This document shows, piece by piece, positions 3,691-8,253 of a stretch of 11,479 nucleotides of DNA. Location: assembly GCA_003559395.1 (NCBI GenBank), contig PWLL01000004.1:1-11479 (forward strand), given 5' to 3'. The notes beneath the pieces are model-generated. The model did not search any database. It was not told where the DNA came from and saw only the letters and a program-made list of their open reading frames with translations. The stretch is from Candidatus Iainarchaeum sp. (lineage in GTDB: Archaea; Iainarchaeota; Iainarchaeia; Iainarchaeales; CSSED10-239). Both the position numbers and the translations under genes were made by a program. How positions within the stretch are numbered: the stretch's first letter is position 1; each line of letters begins with the position of its first letter.

Positions 3691-3716
3691 GACCCGAGCA
3701 AGTCGTTAAACTGCTT
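3690..3716 (+). repeat. Hairpin-motif copy (stem GAGCA/TGCTT, loop AGTCGTTAAAC)
   Basis: CGACCCGAGCAAGTCGTTAAACTGCTT. Confidence 0.7.
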
Positions 3717-3730
3717 TCTTCAAAAAAAAC

Positions 3731-3808
3731 GGGGGTGTAGTTTAAGTGGGAAAGCATCTGTTTTGCAAGCAGAAGAAGTGAAGAGTTCGAATCTCTCCAC
3801 CTCCACCA
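3731..3808 (+). tRNA. tRNA-Ala (anticodon TGC)
   Basis: The acceptor stem GGGGGTG/CACCTCC has G3:U70. The anticodon loop is TTTGCAA and the T-loop is TTCGAAT. A73 and CCA are encoded. The hand fold gives a slightly long variable region. Confidence 0.8.
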
Positions 3809-3814
3809 TTACAA

Positions 3815-3887
3815 GGCAGAGAGAATCGGTATTCAAGTAAGGTTCATACCCTTGCCTTCGTAGGTTCGACTCCTACCTCTGCAACCA
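3815..3887 (+). tRNA. Atypical tRNA-like gene, anticodon CAT
   Basis: The T-arm GTAGG-TTCGACT-CCTAC is canonical and the anticodon loop is TTCATAC. The D-arm is GAAT-CGGT-ATTC, with only a 4-nt loop and no GG. There are 2-3 nt between the D and anticodon stems, and pair 1:72 is a G/A mismatch. CCA is encoded. Confidence 0.5.
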
Positions 3888-4009: not shown

Positions 4010-4125
4010 TGCCGCGACTACAAATATAAATTATAATTCTACAATATAGACCTAACAAGTCCACTCGCCGCACTATAATTAAGTCAAACTAAAAACTTAG
4101 AGCTAGAAACTTGATATATTAACCC

Positions 4126-4154
4126 TTGACTTTCATTTCCAATTATGTTATACT
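4126..4154 (+). promoter_or_regulatory. Promoter of tRNA block 2
   Basis: TTGACT (4126-4131), a 17-nt spacer ending in TGT, then TATACT (4149-4154). Confidence 0.75.
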
Positions 4155-4222
4155 ATATATAGAATAAAAAAAGATAGTGTTTTTTGTAAAGACTAAACAT
4201 TAATTTTTTACAAGAGGTATAT

Positions 4223-4298
4223 GGGGTTTTAGTTCAGAGGTTAGAGCATTTCTCTCATAAGGAAAAAGCCCAAGGTTCAAATCCTTGAAGCCCCACCA
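4223..4298 (+). tRNA. tRNA with anticodon CAT (Met or lysidine-Ile)
   Basis: Acceptor GGGGTTT/AAGCCCC, D-arm GTTC-AGAGGTTA-GAGC, anticodon loop CTCATAA, T-arm CAAGG-TTCAAAT-CCTTG, then A73 and CCA. Confidence 0.85.
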
Positions 4299-4301
4299 CG
4301 A

Positions 4302-4378
4302 TCCTCACTCGTCCAACTGGTAGGACACCGCACTTTTAATGCGGATTAGTATAGGTTCAAGTCCTATGTGAGGAACCA
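4302..4378 (+). tRNA. tRNA-Lys (TTT)
   Basis: Acceptor TCCTCAC/GTGAGGA, anticodon arm CCGCA-CTTTTAA-TGCGG, T-arm ATAGG-TTCAAGT-CCTAT, CCA encoded. Confidence 0.85.
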
Positions 4379-4388
4379 AAAAATATAA

Positions 4389-4462
4389 GGGTCTTTATTT
4401 CAACGGTAGAATTCTGGTCTCCAGAACCAGCGATTAAGGTTCAAATCCTTAAAGACCTGCCA
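4389..4462 (+). tRNA. tRNA-Trp (CCA)
   Basis: Acceptor GGGTCTT/AAGACCT (G1:U72), anticodon arm CTGGT-CTCCAGA-ACCAG, T-arm TAAGG-TTCAAAT-CCTTA, then G73 and CCA. Confidence 0.8.
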
Positions 4463-4466
4463 ACAT

Positions 4467-4542
4467 GTGGGTGTAGCTCAGCTGGGAGAGCATTTGTCTT
4501 ACAAACAAGAGGCCGGAAGTTCAATCCTTCCCACCCATACCA
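4467..4542 (+). tRNA. tRNA-Val (TAC)
   Basis: Acceptor GTGGGTG/CACCCAT, D-arm GCTC-AGCTGGGA-GAGC, anticodon loop CTTACAA, T-arm GGAAG-TTCAATC-CTTCC, CCA encoded. Confidence 0.85.
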
Positions 4543-4545
4543 TAT

Positions 4546-4620
4546 GGGAGAGTAGCTCAATGGTTGAGCCGTAAACTGTTAATTTACTCGATGCAAGTTC
4601 AAATCTTGTCTCTCCCTCCA
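4546..4620 (+). tRNA. tRNA-Asn (GTT)
   Basis: Acceptor GGGAGAG/CTCTCCC, anticodon arm GTAAA-CTGTTAA-TTTAC, T-loop TTCAAAT, CCA encoded. Confidence 0.85.
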
Positions 4621-4635
4621 ATATAAAATAAACGT

Positions 4636-4710
4636 CTTTTCGTGATGAAATGGATATCATAGGAAACTTCTAATTTCTCTTTCCCAGTTCGAATCTGGGC
4701 GGAAAGACCA
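4636..4710 (+). tRNA. tRNA-Arg (TCT)
   Basis: Acceptor CTTTTCG/CGGAAAG, D-arm ATGA-AATGGATA-TCAT, anticodon loop CTTCTAA, T-arm CCCAG-TTCGAAT-CTGGG, CCA encoded. Confidence 0.8.
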
Positions 4711-4729
4711 TTTTATTAAAATTTAACAT

Positions 4730-4806
4730 GGTGCAGTAGTTCAGATGGTTAGAATGCCAGCCTGTCACGCTGGAGGTCGAGGGTTCGAGACCCTTCTGCA
4801 TCGCCA
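4730..4806 (+). tRNA. tRNA-Asp (GTC)
   Basis: Acceptor GGTGCAG/CTGCATC, anticodon arm CCAGC-CTGTCAC-GCTGG, T-loop TTCGAGA, then G73 and CCA. Confidence 0.85.
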
Positions 4807-4809
4807 TAT

Positions 4810-4884
4810 GGATGGGTAGCTCAACAGGGAGAGCGCGAGGTTGAAGCCCTTGAGAAGATAGTTCGAGCCTGTCCTCATCCACCA
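4810..4884 (+). tRNA. tRNA-Phe (GAA)
   Basis: Acceptor GGATGGG/CTCATCC, D-arm GCTC-AACAGGGA-GAGC, anticodon loop TTGAAGC, T-arm GATAG-TTCGAGC-CTGTC, CCA encoded. Confidence 0.85.
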
Positions 4885-4960
4885 GATGTAGTTAGTTTAA
4901 CGGTAAAATGCTGGAATGTGACTCCAGAGATGCTGGGTTCGATTCCCGCACTACATACCA
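4885..4960 (+). tRNA. tRNA-His (GTG) with encoded G-1
   Basis: G-1 (4885) directly abuts the CCA of tRNA-Phe. Acceptor ATGTAGT/ACTACAT, anticodon arm CTGGA-ATGTGAC-TCCAG, T-loop TTCGATT. The discriminator is A rather than C. Confidence 0.8.
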
Positions 4961-4969
4961 AAATAATAT

Positions 4970-5047
4970 GTCTCGGTAATCGAATTGGTATAGATACAGA
5001 ACTTAAAATTCTGAAAGCTGAGGGTTCGACTCCCTCTCGAGGCACCA
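4970..5047 (+). tRNA. tRNA with Leu anticodon TAA but a short (class I-like) variable region
   Basis: Acceptor GTCTCGG/TCGAGGC, D-region ATCG-AATTGGTAT-AGAT, anticodon arm CAGAA-CTTAAAA-TTCTG, about 6-nt variable region AAAGCT, T-arm GAGGG-TTCGACT-CCCTC, then A73 and CCA. It is 75 nt before the CCA. Confidence 0.7.
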
Positions 5048-5050
5048 TAC

Positions 5051-5127
5051 GCTTCGGTAGCTAAACTGGCACAGCCACTCCCTTGTAAGGAGAAGATTTG
5101 TGAGTTCGACTCTCACCCGAAGCTCCA
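5051..5127 (+). tRNA. tRNA-Thr (TGT)
   Basis: Acceptor GCTTCGG/CCGAAGC, anticodon loop CTTGTAA, T-arm GTGAG-TTCGACT-CTCAC, CCA encoded. Confidence 0.8.
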
Positions 5128-5130
5128 TAT

Positions 5131-5208
5131 CTGGGTGTGGCTCAGTTAGGCTAGAGTGCTTGTTTTGGAAACAAGAAGTCGAAGGTTCAAATCCTTCTGC
5201 CCAGACCA
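5131..5208 (+). tRNA. tRNA-Pro (TGG)
   Basis: Acceptor CTGGGTG/TGCCCAG (C1:G72), anticodon arm CTTGT-TTTGGAA-ACAAG, T-arm GAAGG-TTCAAAT-CCTTC, then A73 and CCA. Confidence 0.85.
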
Positions 5209-5211
5209 TTT

Positions 5212-5290
5212 GCCTCGGTAGCAGAATTGGTATATGCTTCAGTCTTAGAAACTGGGAAAACTAAAGGTTCGACTCCTTTGCGAGGCACCA
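5212..5290 (+). tRNA. tRNA with Leu anticodon TAG but a short (class I-like) variable region
   Basis: This is a paralogue of 4970-5047. They share G(T/C)CTCGGTA, GAATTGGTATA, GGTTCGACTCC and CGAGGCACCA. The anticodon arm is TCAGT-CTTAGAA-ACTGG and the variable region GAAAACT is about 7 nt. A73 and CCA follow. Confidence 0.7.
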
Positions 5291-5293
5291 TAT

Positions 5294-5382
5294 GCGGGTA
5301 TAGCGTGCTAAGGTAGACACATTAGACTGTAAATCTAAAGGCTATTAGTCCCGAGTGGGTTCGATTCCCTCTTCCCGCACCA
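5294..5382 (+). tRNA. tRNA-Tyr (GTA), class II
   Basis: Anticodon arm TTAGA-CTGTAAA-TCTAA, long variable arm (GGCT-ATT-AGTC), T-loop TTCGATT, CCA encoded. It is 86 nt before the CCA. The hand fold has one T:T mismatch in each of the acceptor and T stems. Confidence 0.75.
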
Positions 5383-5402: not shown

Positions 5403-5624
5403 ATGAAAGTTGAAAGAATGTTAAAAAAATATAAAAATAAAATTTTAAGAGTTTGGGAGAAAGAACACACTGAAGATGAGTGTTTTTTTGAAACATTAAG
5501 AAATTGGTATTACTTACCAAATAAAGACATTTTATTAGAGTTCTCTAATAATAAAAAGCACTATAGTTATGAACTTTTAAGTAAAATAGTTTTAGCGTAT
5601 TCTAAAAAAGATAATGAAAATTAA
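5403..5624 (+). CDS. Hypothetical protein (73 aa)
   Basis: ORF with an AAAGGAGAAAAAT-ATG RBS, starting 20 nt after tRNA-Tyr with no intervening terminator. Confidence 0.6.
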   Translation: MKVERMLKKYKNKILRVWEKEHTEDECFFETLRNWYYLPNKDILLEFSNNKKHYSYELLSKIVLAYSKKDNEN

Positions 5625-5627
5625 ACC

Positions 5628-5656
5628 TTGACTTCCGCCCGCACTTATGTTATAAT
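5628..5656 (+). promoter_or_regulatory. Consensus promoter with a GC-rich 12-mer in the spacer
   Basis: TTGACT (5628-5633), a 17-nt spacer, then TATAAT (5651-5656). The spacer contains CCGCCCGCACTT, the reverse complement of AAGTGCGGGCGG at 9004-9015. Confidence 0.8.
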
Positions 5657-5731
5657 ATATATATAATAATAAAAAAGTAAAGGTAATAAGGAAGCATTGA
5701 AAAATAAAAAAAAGAGCATAAGGTAAAGCAA

Positions 5732-6142
5732 ATGTTAAGAGAGTATATTAATTCAATAGTATATGATGAAGACAACTATGAACTTGAACAAGAAATAGTT
5801 AGAAAATACCCTGTTTTAAGAGCAAGTCGGTCTTATTGGATTTACGATATTCCTCGTGGGTGGTTAATTAATTTTGGTGAAGACCTTGTTAGAGATCTAA
5901 ATGAAGCTGTAAGCAAATACAATTCTTTAATCGAATTCAACATTCTTGAAGTAAAGGAGAAATTTGGAGGGCTTAGAATTTACATTGGTGCTATGAATTG
6001 CAATATTTTCTTTAATGCGGTTAATGAAGTTATTGAAAAATATGAACAACTTTCATTTGTAGTCTGTGTTGGCTGTGGCAATCCCGCAACAAAAATAAGT
6101 AAAACATGGATTGTACCAGTATGTGAAAAGTGTGAACCTTAA
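5732..6142 (+). CDS. Hypothetical protein (136 aa) with a KEKFGGLR motif and a C-terminal CxxC..CxxC zinc ribbon
   Basis: ORF with an AAGGT RBS. The motif is EVKEKFGGLRIY and the C-terminus is CVGCGNPATKISKTWIVPVCEKCEP. The stop codon lies 3 nt before the first TLD-like RNA. Confidence 0.7.
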   Translation: MLREYINSIVYDEDNYELEQEIVRKYPVLRASRSYWIYDIPRGWLINFGEDLVRDLNEAVSKYNSLIEFNILEVKEKFGGLRIYIGAMNCNIFFNAVNEVIEKYEQLSFVVCVGCGNPATKISKTWIVPVCEKCEP

Positions 6143-6145
6143 CAT

Positions 6146-6224
6146 GGGGCAAAAATGGCTCGAACAACTATAATACCGTCCAGGAATAGTTGAGAGGAAA
6201 GTTCAATTCTTTCTTGCTCCACCA
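6146..6224 (+). ncRNA. tmRNA TLD-like minigene A (76 nt plus CCA)
   Basis: GGGGCAA-AAATGGCTCGAAC-[CAACTAT-14 nt loop-ATAGTTG]-AGAG-GAAAG-TTCAATT-CTTTC-TTGCTCC-A-CCA. It has G3:U70 and ACCA. A TGGnTCGA(A)C D-analogue replaces a D-arm. There is no 7-nt anticodon loop. Confidence 0.6.
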
Positions 6225-6227
6225 TAG

Positions 6228-6303
6228 GCTCTTATAGCTCAGATGGTAGAGCGCTTCCGTGGTAAGGAAGAAGTCATCGGTTCAATCCCGATTAAGAGCT
6301 CCA
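6228..6303 (+). tRNA. tRNA-Thr (GGT)
   Basis: Acceptor GCTCTTA/TAAGAGC, D-arm GCTC-AGATGGTA-GAGC, anticodon arm CTTCC-GTGGTAA-GGAAG, T-arm ATCGG-TTCAATC-CCGAT, CCA encoded. Confidence 0.85.
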
Positions 6304-6307
6304 ATAT

Positions 6308-6373
6308 GGGGATGTAATGGCTTCGACAGGGATTTATTTCTGGACATCGGTTCAATTCCGATCATCTCCACCA
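6308..6373 (+). ncRNA. tmRNA TLD-only minigene B (63 nt plus CCA)
   Basis: GGGGATG-TAATGGCTTCGAC-AGGGATTT-A-TTTCTGGAC-ATCGG-TTCAATT-CCGAT-CATCTCC-A-CCA. It matches the 5' end (GGGGCUGAUUCUGGAUUCGACGGGAUUU) and the 3' end (..UUUCGGACGCGGGUUCAACUCCCGCCAGCUCCACCA) of E. coli SsrA, as recalled, joined directly. G3:U70 is present. Confidence 0.7.
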
Positions 6374-6377
6374 GTAT

Positions 6378-6452
6378 GTGAGATTAGTTTAATTGGTAGA
6401 ACTTCAGCCTTCCAAGCTGATTGCACGGGTTCAATTCCCGTATCTCACTCCA
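6378..6452 (+). tRNA. tRNA-Gly (TCC)
   Basis: Acceptor GTGAGAT/ATCTCAC, anticodon arm TCAGC-CTTCCAA-GCTGA, T-arm ACGGG-TTCAATT-CCCGT, CCA encoded. Confidence 0.85.
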
Positions 6453-6455
6453 CAT

Positions 6456-6530
6456 AGGGATATAGTATAATGGTTAGTGCGCCACTCTGATAAGGTGGTA
6501 GTCATAGTTCGATTCTATGTATCCCTACCA
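6456..6530 (+). tRNA. tRNA-Ile (GAT)
   Basis: Acceptor AGGGATA/TATCCCT, anticodon arm CCACT-CTGATAA-GGTGG, T-arm CATAG-TTCGATT-CTATG, CCA encoded. Confidence 0.85.
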
Positions 6531-6541
6531 AAAATCCTAAA

Positions 6542-6616
6542 CTCTCGGTATTTCAATGGACAGAATGCTTGGCTACGAACTAAGTGATGTAGGTTCGAAT
6601 CCTACCCGAGAGTCCA
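6542..6616 (+). tRNA. tRNA-Arg (ACG)
   Basis: Acceptor CTCTCGG/CCGAGAG, anticodon arm CTTGG-CTACGAA-CTAAG, T-arm GTAGG-TTCGAAT-CCTAC, CCA encoded. Confidence 0.85.
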
Positions 6617-6642
6617 ATACTTAAACCTATGATATAATATAT

Positions 6643-6719
6643 GGCTTCGTAGTGGAATTGGTCAACACGCCGCCCTTTCAAGGCGGAGACTGAGGGTTCA
6701 AACCCCTCCGAAGTCACCA
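6643..6719 (+). tRNA. tRNA-Glu (TTC)
   Basis: Acceptor GGCTTCG/CGAAGTC, anticodon arm CCGCC-CTTTCAA-GGCGG, T-arm GAGGG-TTCAAAC-CCCTC, CCA encoded. Confidence 0.85.
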
Positions 6720-6726
6720 AATAAAT

Positions 6727-6814
6727 GGAAAGATGGCAGAGTTTGGCTTATTGCATCGGTCTTGAAAACCGAAGGGTTTCGGCTCCGTGGGTTCGAATCC
6801 CACTCTTTCCGCCA
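6727..6814 (+). tRNA. tRNA-Ser (TGA), class II
   Basis: Acceptor GGAAAGA/TCTTTCC, anticodon arm TCGGT-CTTGAAA-ACCGA, long variable arm, T-arm GTGGG-TTCGAAT-CCCAC, then G73 and CCA. Confidence 0.85.
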
Positions 6815-6859
6815 ATAAAGAGGTGATATTATGGGTAAAAAACCTGCAATTATAAAATG

Positions 6860-6888
6860 TTGACTTCAATTAAAAATTATGTTATAAT
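6860..6888 (+). promoter_or_regulatory. Duplicated promoter, copy 1
   Basis: TTGACT (6860-6865), a 17-nt spacer ending in TGT, then TATAAT (6883-6888). Confidence 0.8.
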
Positions 6889-6942
6889 ATATATATAATA
6901 AAATAAAGGTTTAGTTATAAATAAAATTTCACTTATAAAATG

Positions 6943-6971
6943 TTGACTTCAATTAAAAATTATGTTATAAT
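6943..6971 (+). promoter_or_regulatory. Duplicated promoter, copy 2
   Basis: TTGACT (6943-6948), a 17-nt spacer ending in TGT, then TATAAT (6966-6971). Confidence 0.8.
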
Positions 6972-7000
6972 ATATATATAATAAAATAAAGGTTTAGTTG

Positions 7001-7233
7001 GTCCTGAGCAAGACATTAAACTACTTAGCAACAGAAAAGTCCTAAACAAAAGACTCCTTTGCTCACCTTAAACTGTTTAGTCCTAAGCCAGACTATAAAA
7101 TGCTTTATGTCCAGCAAGACGATAAACTGCTATTGCAGTGTCCTAAACAAGACCTGTGAGCTTTGATAAAAAGTTTTAGAACTTTTTATCCCCAAACTGT
7201 TTAGTCCTAAACAAGACTATAAACTGCTTATAG
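7001..7233 (+). repeat. Six abutting copies of the (G)TCCTAAACAAGAC-N-AAACTG(C/T)TTAG hairpin motif
   Basis: Units lie at 7001-7028, 7039-7080, 7081-7108, 7109-7135, 7140-7204 and 7205-7233. The 5-bp inner stem is (G/A)A(G/A)CA / TG(C/T)T(C/T) and the 11-nt loop is AGAC-NNN-AAAC. Units 2 and 5 carry 15-nt and 40-nt insertions inside the loop. The unit 5 insertion is itself a hairpin, GATAAAAAGTT/AACTTTTTATC. Confidence 0.75.
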
Positions 7234-7245
7234 TATAAATTTAAT

Positions 7246-7810
7246 GTACCTTGAAAAAATAATATTTGTATCTTAGTGTATGACACGCCTGTGTGCTAAG
7301 AGCCTCCGCATATTAAGAACCTACATAGAGGGATACCTTTATAAGAGTTCTTTAGTTGTTAAGCAATTAACAATTAGAAGAGCCAAAAGCTCAACAATAG
7401 GGATGCGTGCTGTTCTCAGGAAGAAGATAAGATATGTAAAGGACTCGAGAAGGTAATATACGCCTACAGTGTAGGAATGAGCCAATATGCAAATAGGGTA
7501 AGACCTATTTGACCACTATTGGTAAGCTGACCCAACTTCTTTAGCCGTGATGTGCAAGAAATTGTGCTATAAGAGATTCCTTACAGTAAAAGTAGCCTAA
7601 GGCTTAAAGAATATGGAACTGATAATTCCGTTTTATTTAATAAGCTGAACGGTAGGTGAAATTTACAGGTAGAAAATCCTGTCTGTGCTTGACAAGGGTG
7701 AAAAGTATTAGGGTAGCTCCTTAATATTCAGCTTCACTCTCACAGTGATCGAACATCCCATTCTGTTGATGGTAAAACGAAAGTTTACAAATATTATTTT
7801 TTCAAGGTAC
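7246..7810 (+). ncRNA. Candidate large structured ncRNA II (565 nt), possibly ROOL/GOLLD-class
   Basis: GTACCTTGAAAAAATAATATTTGTA (7246-7270) is the perfect reverse complement of 7786-7810. The interior is GC-enriched and has no credible ORF. It is rich in hairpins, some with G:U pairs and a GNRA loop: TCTTAGTGTA/TGTGCTAAGA (7271/7292), TTGTTAA-GCAA-TTAACAA (7357-7374), GAGC/GCTC (7380/7389), CCTAC/GTAGG (7462/7470), AATAGG/CCTATT (7492/7504) and ACAGG/CCTGT (7665/7678). It lies downstream of the tandem promoters. Confidence 0.6.
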
Positions 7811-8179: not shown

Positions 8180-8253
8180 AGGGATATGTTGTAATGATAG
8201 CAAAGAGCCCTTTGAAGGCTTTAGTCGAGGTTTAAGTCCTTGTATCCCTGCCA
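8180..8253 (+). tRNA. tRNA-Gln (TTG), atypical elbow
   Basis: Acceptor AGGGATA/TATCCCT, identical to tRNA-Ile at 6456. The anticodon arm is GAGCC-CTTTGAA-GGCTT. The D-loop AATGATA lacks GG and the T-loop TTTAAGT lacks C56. G73 and CCA follow. Confidence 0.65.

Follow-up and report, generated by a model that had tools for sequence, protein, structure and literature searches.

The complete contig PWLL01000004.1 (11,479 bp, G+C 33.6%), called the window below, carries within an array of transfer RNA (tRNA) genes two short units, elements A and B, that resemble the tRNA-like domain (TLD) found in transfer-messenger RNA (tmRNA, encoded by ssrA) with the rest of that molecule removed. Element B is a complete tmRNA TLD, without tag reading frame or pseudoknots, and element A is best read, judging from its sequence, as a TLD resembling a longer form of such genes. 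Similar TLD-only minigenes form a family in viral contigs, and the members of this family are selected RNAs, not debris.

Anatomy of elements A and B

The two elements lie where the original prediction, made from the DNA letters and their open reading frames, had placed them (Table 1). Element B matches the Rfam tmRNA model RF00023 from end to end with 75.0 bits (E 4.8e-28, gathering threshold 47), in an alignment that spans model positions 1-374 with 310 internal positions missing and 2 nt in their place. It also scores 70.3 bits on R1, a covariance model that we built from 49 TLD-only sequences (48 others and B itself, with A left out). The D-loop analogue GGnUUCGAC and the GGAC junction of tmRNA are matched exactly (GGCUUCGAC ... 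GGAC). The prediction had described B as the two tmRNA termini joined together, leaning on the ends of E. coli SsrA; this description is borne out by the RF00023 match and the RNAfold structure, and the ends that it gave agree with ssrA read from the E. coli K-12 genome, whose joined termini align with B and are identical to it at 51 of 66 bases. A BLAST search of B against E. coli genomes gave no match at that database size. ARAGORN makes no call on B, as expected of a tmRNA without a tag frame. As a separate observation, the T-arm of B (CATCGGTTCAATTCCGAT, 6345-6362) is identical at 17 of 18 bases to the T-arm of the neighbouring tRNA-Thr (CATCGGTTCAATCCCGAT, 6275-6292), a likeness which hints at local duplication or gene conversion in the array.

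Element A has no significant match in Rfam; at E<=10 neither a tRNA nor an RF00023 match is found, and of tmRNA-type models the best give partial matches of 12.4 bits (E 0.44) and 9.8 bits (E 0.13). On R1, however, which was trained without it, A reaches 54.8 bits (E 1.7e-11, a rough value, from a window scan with filters off). This is 29 bits above the best true tRNA, as all 23 tRNAs of the window score at most 25.8 bits and the window's tRNA-Ala, which also has G3:U70, scores 23.8, and it is near the 58.1 bits of the stand-alone TLD of Mycobacterium phage DS6A, recorded as 'TLD only' (tmRNA Website tmID 11587; PMC4131195). RNAfold recovers the predicted fold plan, with G3:U in an acceptor stem of 7 bp, a 3+7-bp arm that ends in a 14-nt loop, a T-arm of 5 bp, and ACCA. 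This loop and that of DS6A both fall in register with the motif UAAnnCC...GGnA seen in the long members of the family. Since the R1 score is near that of DS6A and the loop is in register with this motif, A is best read as a long-form-like TLD.

The claim that A shares the plan of B is thus well supported, and the P2 junction of A is altered. Positions invariant in the family are changed there, with UCGAAC in place of UUCGAC and AGAG in place of the GAC that follows the helix-closing G (GGAC in the family). In the D-loop analogue and junction (GGCUCGAAC ... GAGAG) one U has been lost, one A gained on each side, and the final C, equivalent to E. coli C335, is G. Read directly, A keeps the P2-closing pair C20-G47 and the tandem G.A/A.G, with an extra A.A pair between. 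An A-type pattern (GGNTCGAAC ...) retrieved no second such sequence from IMG/VR, and a metagenome scan found A on the window's own contig only.

Both elements share a 7-bp acceptor stem with G3:U70, a T-arm whose loop reads TTCNANT, and a 3' end of discriminator A and CCA. The TLD halves are in standard order within ~100 nt and joined by a capped P2 helix; they stand 16 nt apart in B and 28 nt in A, which leaves no room for pseudoknots PK1-PK4 or helix 5. A resume codon and tag reading frame are absent from both (the arm of A is a 28-nt hairpin, and ARAGORN gives no tag peptide). A normal cloverleaf, which would have spoken against the prediction, was found for neither element by ARAGORN or by the Rfam tRNA model RF00005 at E<=10, and neither predicted fold contains an anticodon arm with a 7-nt loop. 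In E. coli, as seen by cryo-EM, the bases of tmRNA in contact with SmpB are A15, U17 and A334, together forming the Trp122 pocket, and the stacked C18-G19, and the change G19C abolishes SmpB binding (PMC8363625). By sequence, B keeps the equivalents of U17, C18, G19 and A334, and A those of C18, G19 and A334, with one of the two U residues lost.

A family of TLD-only genes in viral contigs

A strict pattern requiring both TLD halves, 8-38 nt apart, with 28 fixed bases, matches 67 IMG/VR contigs (L001-L067) with 48 distinct sequences. In 185,579 bacterial and archaeal species genomes, one genome each, the same pattern matches 5 contigs, all metagenome-assembled. A second, narrower pattern matches 79 metagenome contigs, ~30 of them with elements of at least 60 bits on R1. 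Across the 49 aligned sequences, 94% of cells in the acceptor, P2 and T helices are paired, 14 of the 19 pairs show changes on both sides, and the covariation score is 0.68, against 0.16 when shuffled and at most 0.15 with slid partners; G3:U is invariant throughout. A larger model-guided alignment shows compensatory change in 16 of the 19 pairs. It is this abundance of compensatory change, together with the invariant G3:U, that identifies the family members as RNAs under selection.

The family falls into a short class (64-67 nt, 6 loci), which has a plain P2 hairpin as in B, and a long class (78-90 nt), where an NAAA stretch comes after P2, along with a small GC hairpin. This stretch and the 3-4-bp GC hairpin at the tip of P2 are conserved in the long forms of L001-L067 (for example UAAAGCC-GCAUG-CGGA, alignment A1), and the stretch resembles UAAAAAGCCGCA, which comes after PK1 in E. 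coli ssrA. We considered whether the UAA after the P2 strand could be a stop codon at the resume position, and rejected this reading: the motif is NAAA (GAAA, CAAA and AAAG are also seen), and a stop is lacking at that place in several members and in B. A mini tag frame starting from GCA in the long-form loop was likewise dropped, as one sequence is open to a stop, others are not, and the frame is not conserved. In 15 of the 49 sequences (GGGGTGG...CACCTCC) the acceptor stem has U5.C and G6.A mismatches (alignment A1, columns 5-6 with 82-83) and RNAfold favours pairing of GGUGG with CCACC of the 3' tail, so that an alternative structure or a distinct subgroup may be involved. Three metagenome loci (L080 378-449, L125 2113-2183 and L136 1556-1626) encode 71-72-nt RNAs of 46-52 bits on R1 with a GGGG start, G3:U70, T-arm and CCA, in which one stem-loop replaces the D-arm and P2 junction; from their sequences these appear to be another kind of alanine-type mini tRNA-like unit.

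At about a dozen other loci tRNAs lie within 100 nt of the TLD, so membership in a tRNA array is recurrent but not universal. The window contig is the sole locus seen with two TLDs, one resembling each class; none of ~145 other fetched loci has two. In a search for a protein partner, clustering of the open reading frames (ORFs) found up to 3 kb from 62 TLD-only loci gave no protein family shared by more than 6 loci and none in common with the window.

In 50,697 GenBank phage records, BLAST with B and two family members found no further TLD-only genes. The cyanophage S-SSM7 match was rejected because its two halves are in permuted order, those of Gordonia phage Yeezy (adjoining the integrase) and Pseudomonas phage SM1 because they are 3' fragments, and that of cyanophage S-CRM01 because R1 gives no match at E<=0.001. 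Two further phages, IT22 of Erwinia and GodonK of Gordonia, hold unannotated tRNA-like units that reach ~31-32 bits on R1 and are not TLD-only genes. Annotation based on ARAGORN would miss TLD-only genes because the program needs a tag frame: it called none of the family minigenes correctly, nearly all being missed and two called tRNA-Glu, and two surveys of phage tmRNAs call tmRNAs by ARAGORN (PMC7162821, PMC9004378). At one viral locus (L014 5905-6228, minus strand) ARAGORN calls a 324-nt tmRNA with the tag AWDYNPMWVQCSA, whose 3' end coincides with an 82-nt TLD-only unit; either the call is spurious or both readings are possible at this locus.

The original prediction took a natural TLD-only gene to be undescribed, which proved incorrect, since DS6A (PMC4131195) and organellar forms (PMC11915505) are on record. 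We located the DS6A TLD at NC_023744 28478-28560 (83 nt, unannotated, between gp33 and gp34). It is, like A and B, a phage-borne stand-alone TLD with G3:U, D-loop analogue, P2 arm and T-arm and no tag frame, and its loop (GAAAACCG-CACG-CGGUA) has the same plan as that of A, whereas B has a bare 6-bp hairpin where DS6A has a long arm. Unlike the window, with its two copies in a tRNA operon, DS6A has a single copy among protein genes and no tRNA array, is GC-rich and encodes no CCA (it ends in ACUA). DS6A also encodes an RtcB-type 'tRNA splicing ligase' (gp76); tmRNA is described as the most frequent RtcB target (Kotta-Loizou et al. 2022, cited in PMC11090510).

PMC11915505 reports tag-less tmRNAs from jakobid mitochondria (citing Jacob et al. 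2004) and, at ~65 bp, from Mallomonadaceae plastids. These are natural genes cut down to little beyond the TLD, the plastid ones about the size of B, but they are single-copy descendants of a resident ssrA, work with imported SmpB and are the sole tmRNA present, while A and B would be extra copies that a virus brings into a cell with its own full tmRNA. Bacterial ssrA (RF00023) shares with the minigenes the 5' end GGGG..UGG.UUCGAC and a 3' end of GGAC, T-arm and ..CUCCACCA, with the identity elements for alanyl-tRNA synthetase (AlaRS) and the SmpB-contact bases, A differing at the junction as described above; the minigenes lack its resume codon, tag reading frame, helix 5 and pseudoknots, ~300 nt in all. 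Full-length phage tmRNAs, as in Bxz1-like mycobacteriophages, Bacillus phage G, and in two-piece form the OM43 phage Melnitz and cyanophages (PMC4131195, PMC9004378), are also phage-encoded ssrA homologues, and in S-CRM01 the tmRNA-like match adjoins annotated tRNA genes as in the window; unlike A and B, however, the published ones encode a tag and are in principle capable of complete trans-translation. The kind of gene, and the idea that it acts as a decoy, are therefore already known from DS6A, the organellar forms and the tmRNA literature. New here are evidence for a sizeable phage-restricted family, its division into short and long classes, and a single locus that holds two divergent copies. 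In text searches no account was met of the viral family at large, of phages with the short form, or of a tRNA operon that has two copies.

The tRNA array and its surroundings

ARAGORN finds 23 plus-strand tRNA genes in the window, in sub-arrays at 3731-3887, 4223-5382 and 6228-6814 with a single gene at 8180, and Rfam agrees on 22 of them. The tRNA-Met (CAU) called at 3815-3887 (plus strand) has an atypical-looking D-arm region and is not reported by the Rfam tRNA model even at E<=0.05. A and B are spaced as ordinary units of this array, as predicted: 3 nt separate A from tRNA-Thr, 4 nt tRNA-Thr from B and 4 nt B from tRNA-Gly, and an encoded CCA terminates A, B and all 23 tRNAs. A promoter-like site matching 11 of 12 consensus positions, and putatively functional on that basis, lies upstream within one of four copies of an 80-nt cassette (TTGACTT, 17 nt, TGTTATAATATATATATAATA). 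One cassette copy precedes each large tRNA sub-array (starts 4223 and 6146) and two tandem copies precede the leader of a ROOL RNA. After the promoter-like site the order is a 136-aa ORF, A, tRNA-Thr, B and five tRNAs, and on the plus strand from this site to 6814 no terminator-like site was found. The short spacers, the encoded CCA, the common promoter-like site and the lack of an internal terminator make it reasonable to infer that A and B are co-transcribed with the array and processed like tRNAs.

Table 1. Features of the window discussed in the text
Feature	Position	Strand	Details and source
Element A, candidate long-form-like TLD-only tmRNA minigene, 79 nt	6146..6224	+	R1 score, fold, loop motif
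A acceptor stem, 7 bp	6146-6152 with 6214-6220		G3:U at 6148/6218
A D-loop analogue	6153-6164		AAAUGGCUCGAA
A P2 arm, 7 bp	6165-6192		loop UAAUACC-GUCCA-GGAA
A junction	6193-6196		AGAG
A T-arm	6197-6213		
A 3' end	6221-6224		ACCA
Element B, short-form TLD-only tmRNA minigene, 66 nt	6308..6373	+	Rfam tmRNA, R1, RNAfold
B acceptor stem, 7 bp	6308-6314 with 6363-6369		G3:U at 6310/6367
B D-loop analogue	6315-6326		UAAUGGCUUCGA
B P2 hairpin, 6 bp, 4-nt loop	6327-6342		RNAfold
B remainder of GGAC motif	6343-6345		GAC
B T-arm, 5 bp	6346-6362		
B 3' end	6370-6373		ACCA
Promoter-like site (putative)	5628..5656	+	TTGACT + 17 nt + TATAAT with TG extension
80-nt promoter cassette, four copies	4103-4182, 5605-5684, 6837-6916, 6920-6999	+	
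ORF, 136 aa, C-terminal four-cysteine motif	5732..6142	+	open reading frame
tRNA-Thr (GGU), between A and B	6228..6303	+	ARAGORN; Rfam tRNA 65.1 bits
tRNAs Gly-UCC, Ile-GAU, Arg-ACG, Glu-UUC, Ser-UGA, same sub-array	6378..6814	+	ARAGORN and Rfam
ROOL RNA, full length, just 3' of the tRNA/TLD sub-array	7248-7806	+	Rfam RF03087, 298 bits, E 2.6e-68

The 136-aa ORF is probably co-transcribed with A, because its stop codon ends 3 nt before it. It looks like an uncharacterised domain: the family is large (2750 representatives at E<=0.001) and without an assigned function, is fused in some proteins to NUDIX or Ham1 (ITPase) domains, and has G43, W44, Y104 and three of the four C-terminal cysteines invariant, the fourth being nearly so. 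The AlphaFold model (pLDDT 91) has no fold match in the PDB. We considered this protein as a partner of the TLDs and dropped the idea, as relatives occur without TLDs (two from IMG/VR have none nearby) and no link was found.

The contig is likely to be of phage origin. Signs of this are the 23 tRNAs, the ROOL RNA, PHROG matches for 3 of 10 scanned ORFs, one T5orf172 domain and one ORF with relatives on IMG/VR contigs; the origin is likely rather than proven because the 11.5-kb contig holds no capsid, tail or terminase gene. A soda-lake sediment metagenome has a contig of 2,175 bp that carries the segment from A to B in identical form. Between the tandem cassettes and the ROOL RNA there are at least four copies of a ~36-nt repeat (AAACTGTTTAGTCCTAAACAAGACTATAAACTGCTT, 6991-7229, plus strand), and a related sequence, CCCGAGCAAGTCGTTAAACTGCTT, stands at ~3695-3720, immediately 5' of tRNA-Ala; from their sequences these may be processing or leader hairpins.

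Possible roles of the minigenes

What would be the role of such truncated molecules? We give about an even chance to the reading that A and B are phage-borne ssrA derivatives, cut down to the TLD, that compete with host tmRNA and suppress tagging. The two RNAs would arise on one transcript with the 136-aa ORF and six tRNAs, started at the promoter-like site, and be excised by the tRNA-processing enzymes, with RNase P acting at the 5' end and exonucleolytic trimming to the encoded CCA at the 3' end. Host AlaRS would charge them with alanine through G3:U70 and A73, and host SmpB would bind to the GGAC junction and the D-loop analogue. Host tmRNA would thereby face competition for SmpB, and perhaps also for EF-Tu and the vacant A site on stalled ribosomes. 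Because they have no resume codon, tag frame or pseudoknots, A and B would be unable to complete trans-translation, and ssrA tagging would be suppressed during infection.

That a TLD fragment can take the first steps of trans-translation is evident from structures which show it bound to SmpB, EF-Tu and the ribosome. Engineered TLD fragments were crystallised with SmpB (Gutmann 2003, Bessho 2007, as cited in PMC3022190), and a crystal structure of truncated tmRNA with SmpB and EF-Tu on a stalled ribosome is described in PMC8363625. In architecture these fragments are like B, with acceptor and T-arm stacked, a D-loop analogue and a P2 helix that is short and capped, but they are laboratory constructs and not genes. 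According to the two papers that cite the experiment (PMC4131195, PMC11915505, citing Mao et al. 2009), a TLD-only molecule like that of DS6A, chargeable or not, strongly inhibits, on expression in E. coli, the cell's own tmRNA, perhaps by titrating SmpB. The decoy proposed in the original prediction matches this published suggestion; its extension to A and B is what we infer here, and the idea itself is not new.

Several points weigh against suppression of tagging by A and B. Trans-translation frees ribosomes as well, so that the benefit to a phage of blocking rescue is not obvious. Knowledge of the inhibition experiment comes through the two citing papers just named. The training set of R1 was chosen by a pattern derived from the tmRNA consensus, and its E-values are rough. 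A has no relative elsewhere in the IMG/VR or metagenome scans and departs from the family-invariant junction, and with these positions altered it may bind SmpB poorly or not at all.

A and B could instead rescue stalled ribosomes without tagging, a minority possibility in our view. Ala-TLD with SmpB and EF-Tu would enter non-stop ribosomes and accept the nascent chain, whose product would remain unmarked for proteolysis; exit would then follow through ArfA/RF2, ArfB, peptidyl-tRNA drop-off or the addition of further alanines, and the ribosomes would be recycled. Both elements retain all that charging and entry into the A site call for (G3:U70, A73, the CCA end and a T-arm), and a phage with 23 tRNAs invests in translation capacity. 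In mitochondria, tag-less tmRNAs are found together with an imported SmpB and are believed to assist when mRNAs are incomplete, and bacterial tags of only two residues exist (PMC11915505). However, without a resume codon the ribosome would stay message-less after translocation, no release factor or Arf-like gene turned up in the scan of 10 window ORFs, and the sole reported test with a TLD-only RNA gave inhibition of tmRNA function, not substitution for it (PMC4131195, PMC11915505).

The altered junction raises a different question, namely whether B alone is a TLD, and A either an aberrant unit of tRNA-like kind or a duplicate in decay, no longer able to work with SmpB. This we judge rather unlikely. 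It would account for the lack of a significant match to the Rfam tmRNA models, for the changed junction bases, where the model alignment puts an A.A mismatch at the helix-closing pair, and for the absence of a second A-type sequence from the scans. Yet if one A is counted as an insertion, so that C20-G47 closes P2, each of the 19 pairs of the model remains possible in element A; and its R1 score far above any real tRNA and close to DS6A, its loop in register with the long-form motif, and the lack of both an anticodon-type 7-nt loop and a tRNA call all argue for a TLD.

Could both elements be functionless passengers of the array, inert remains of a captured host ssrA whose middle has been lost? 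An origin by internal deletion of ssrA is plausible in view of the identity between B and the joined E. coli termini, but inertness appears improbable: every helix is intact in A and B, the elements keep the exact spacing and CCA of working tRNAs, and the 48 distinct viral sequences show compensatory change with invariant G3:U. Nor are they att-site fragments, which hold the 3' half only, as by the integrase of Yeezy. That A and B instead lure a host defence which recognises or cleaves tmRNA-like or tRNA-like RNA, trans-translation not being the target, is hardly credible, as the case is purely circumstantial (type II and III-A CoCoNuT systems carry SmpB-like OB folds predicted to bind tmRNA-like RNA, PMC11090510, and clustered mycobacterial tRNA genes are described in PMC12803027 as a putative anti-defence system), while the scan of 10 window ORFs brought up no defence or anti-defence gene near the elements and protein families are common to at most 6 of 62 TLD-only neighbourhoods.

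A broader view can be put forward only tentatively and at low confidence: that tag-less tmRNA mimics are a widespread phage-specific class of translation-control RNA missed by annotation, of which this phage has one like each form, and that the remodelled junction of A could mark a division of labour. For example, one copy could sequester SmpB while the other engages a different partner or step. The present survey suggests that DS6A, as the single published phage case, is the visible tip of a family with members on at least 67 IMG/VR contigs and ~30 metagenome contigs, almost absent from cellular genomes, which surveys relying on ARAGORN would miss. The two divergent copies on one contig offer a natural comparison for mapping the important features of the TLD. 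If TLD-only RNAs block or short-circuit trans-translation, they would be a natural and compact means of inhibiting a pathway that antibiotic research pursues as a target, and a tool for probing ribosome rescue during phage infection.

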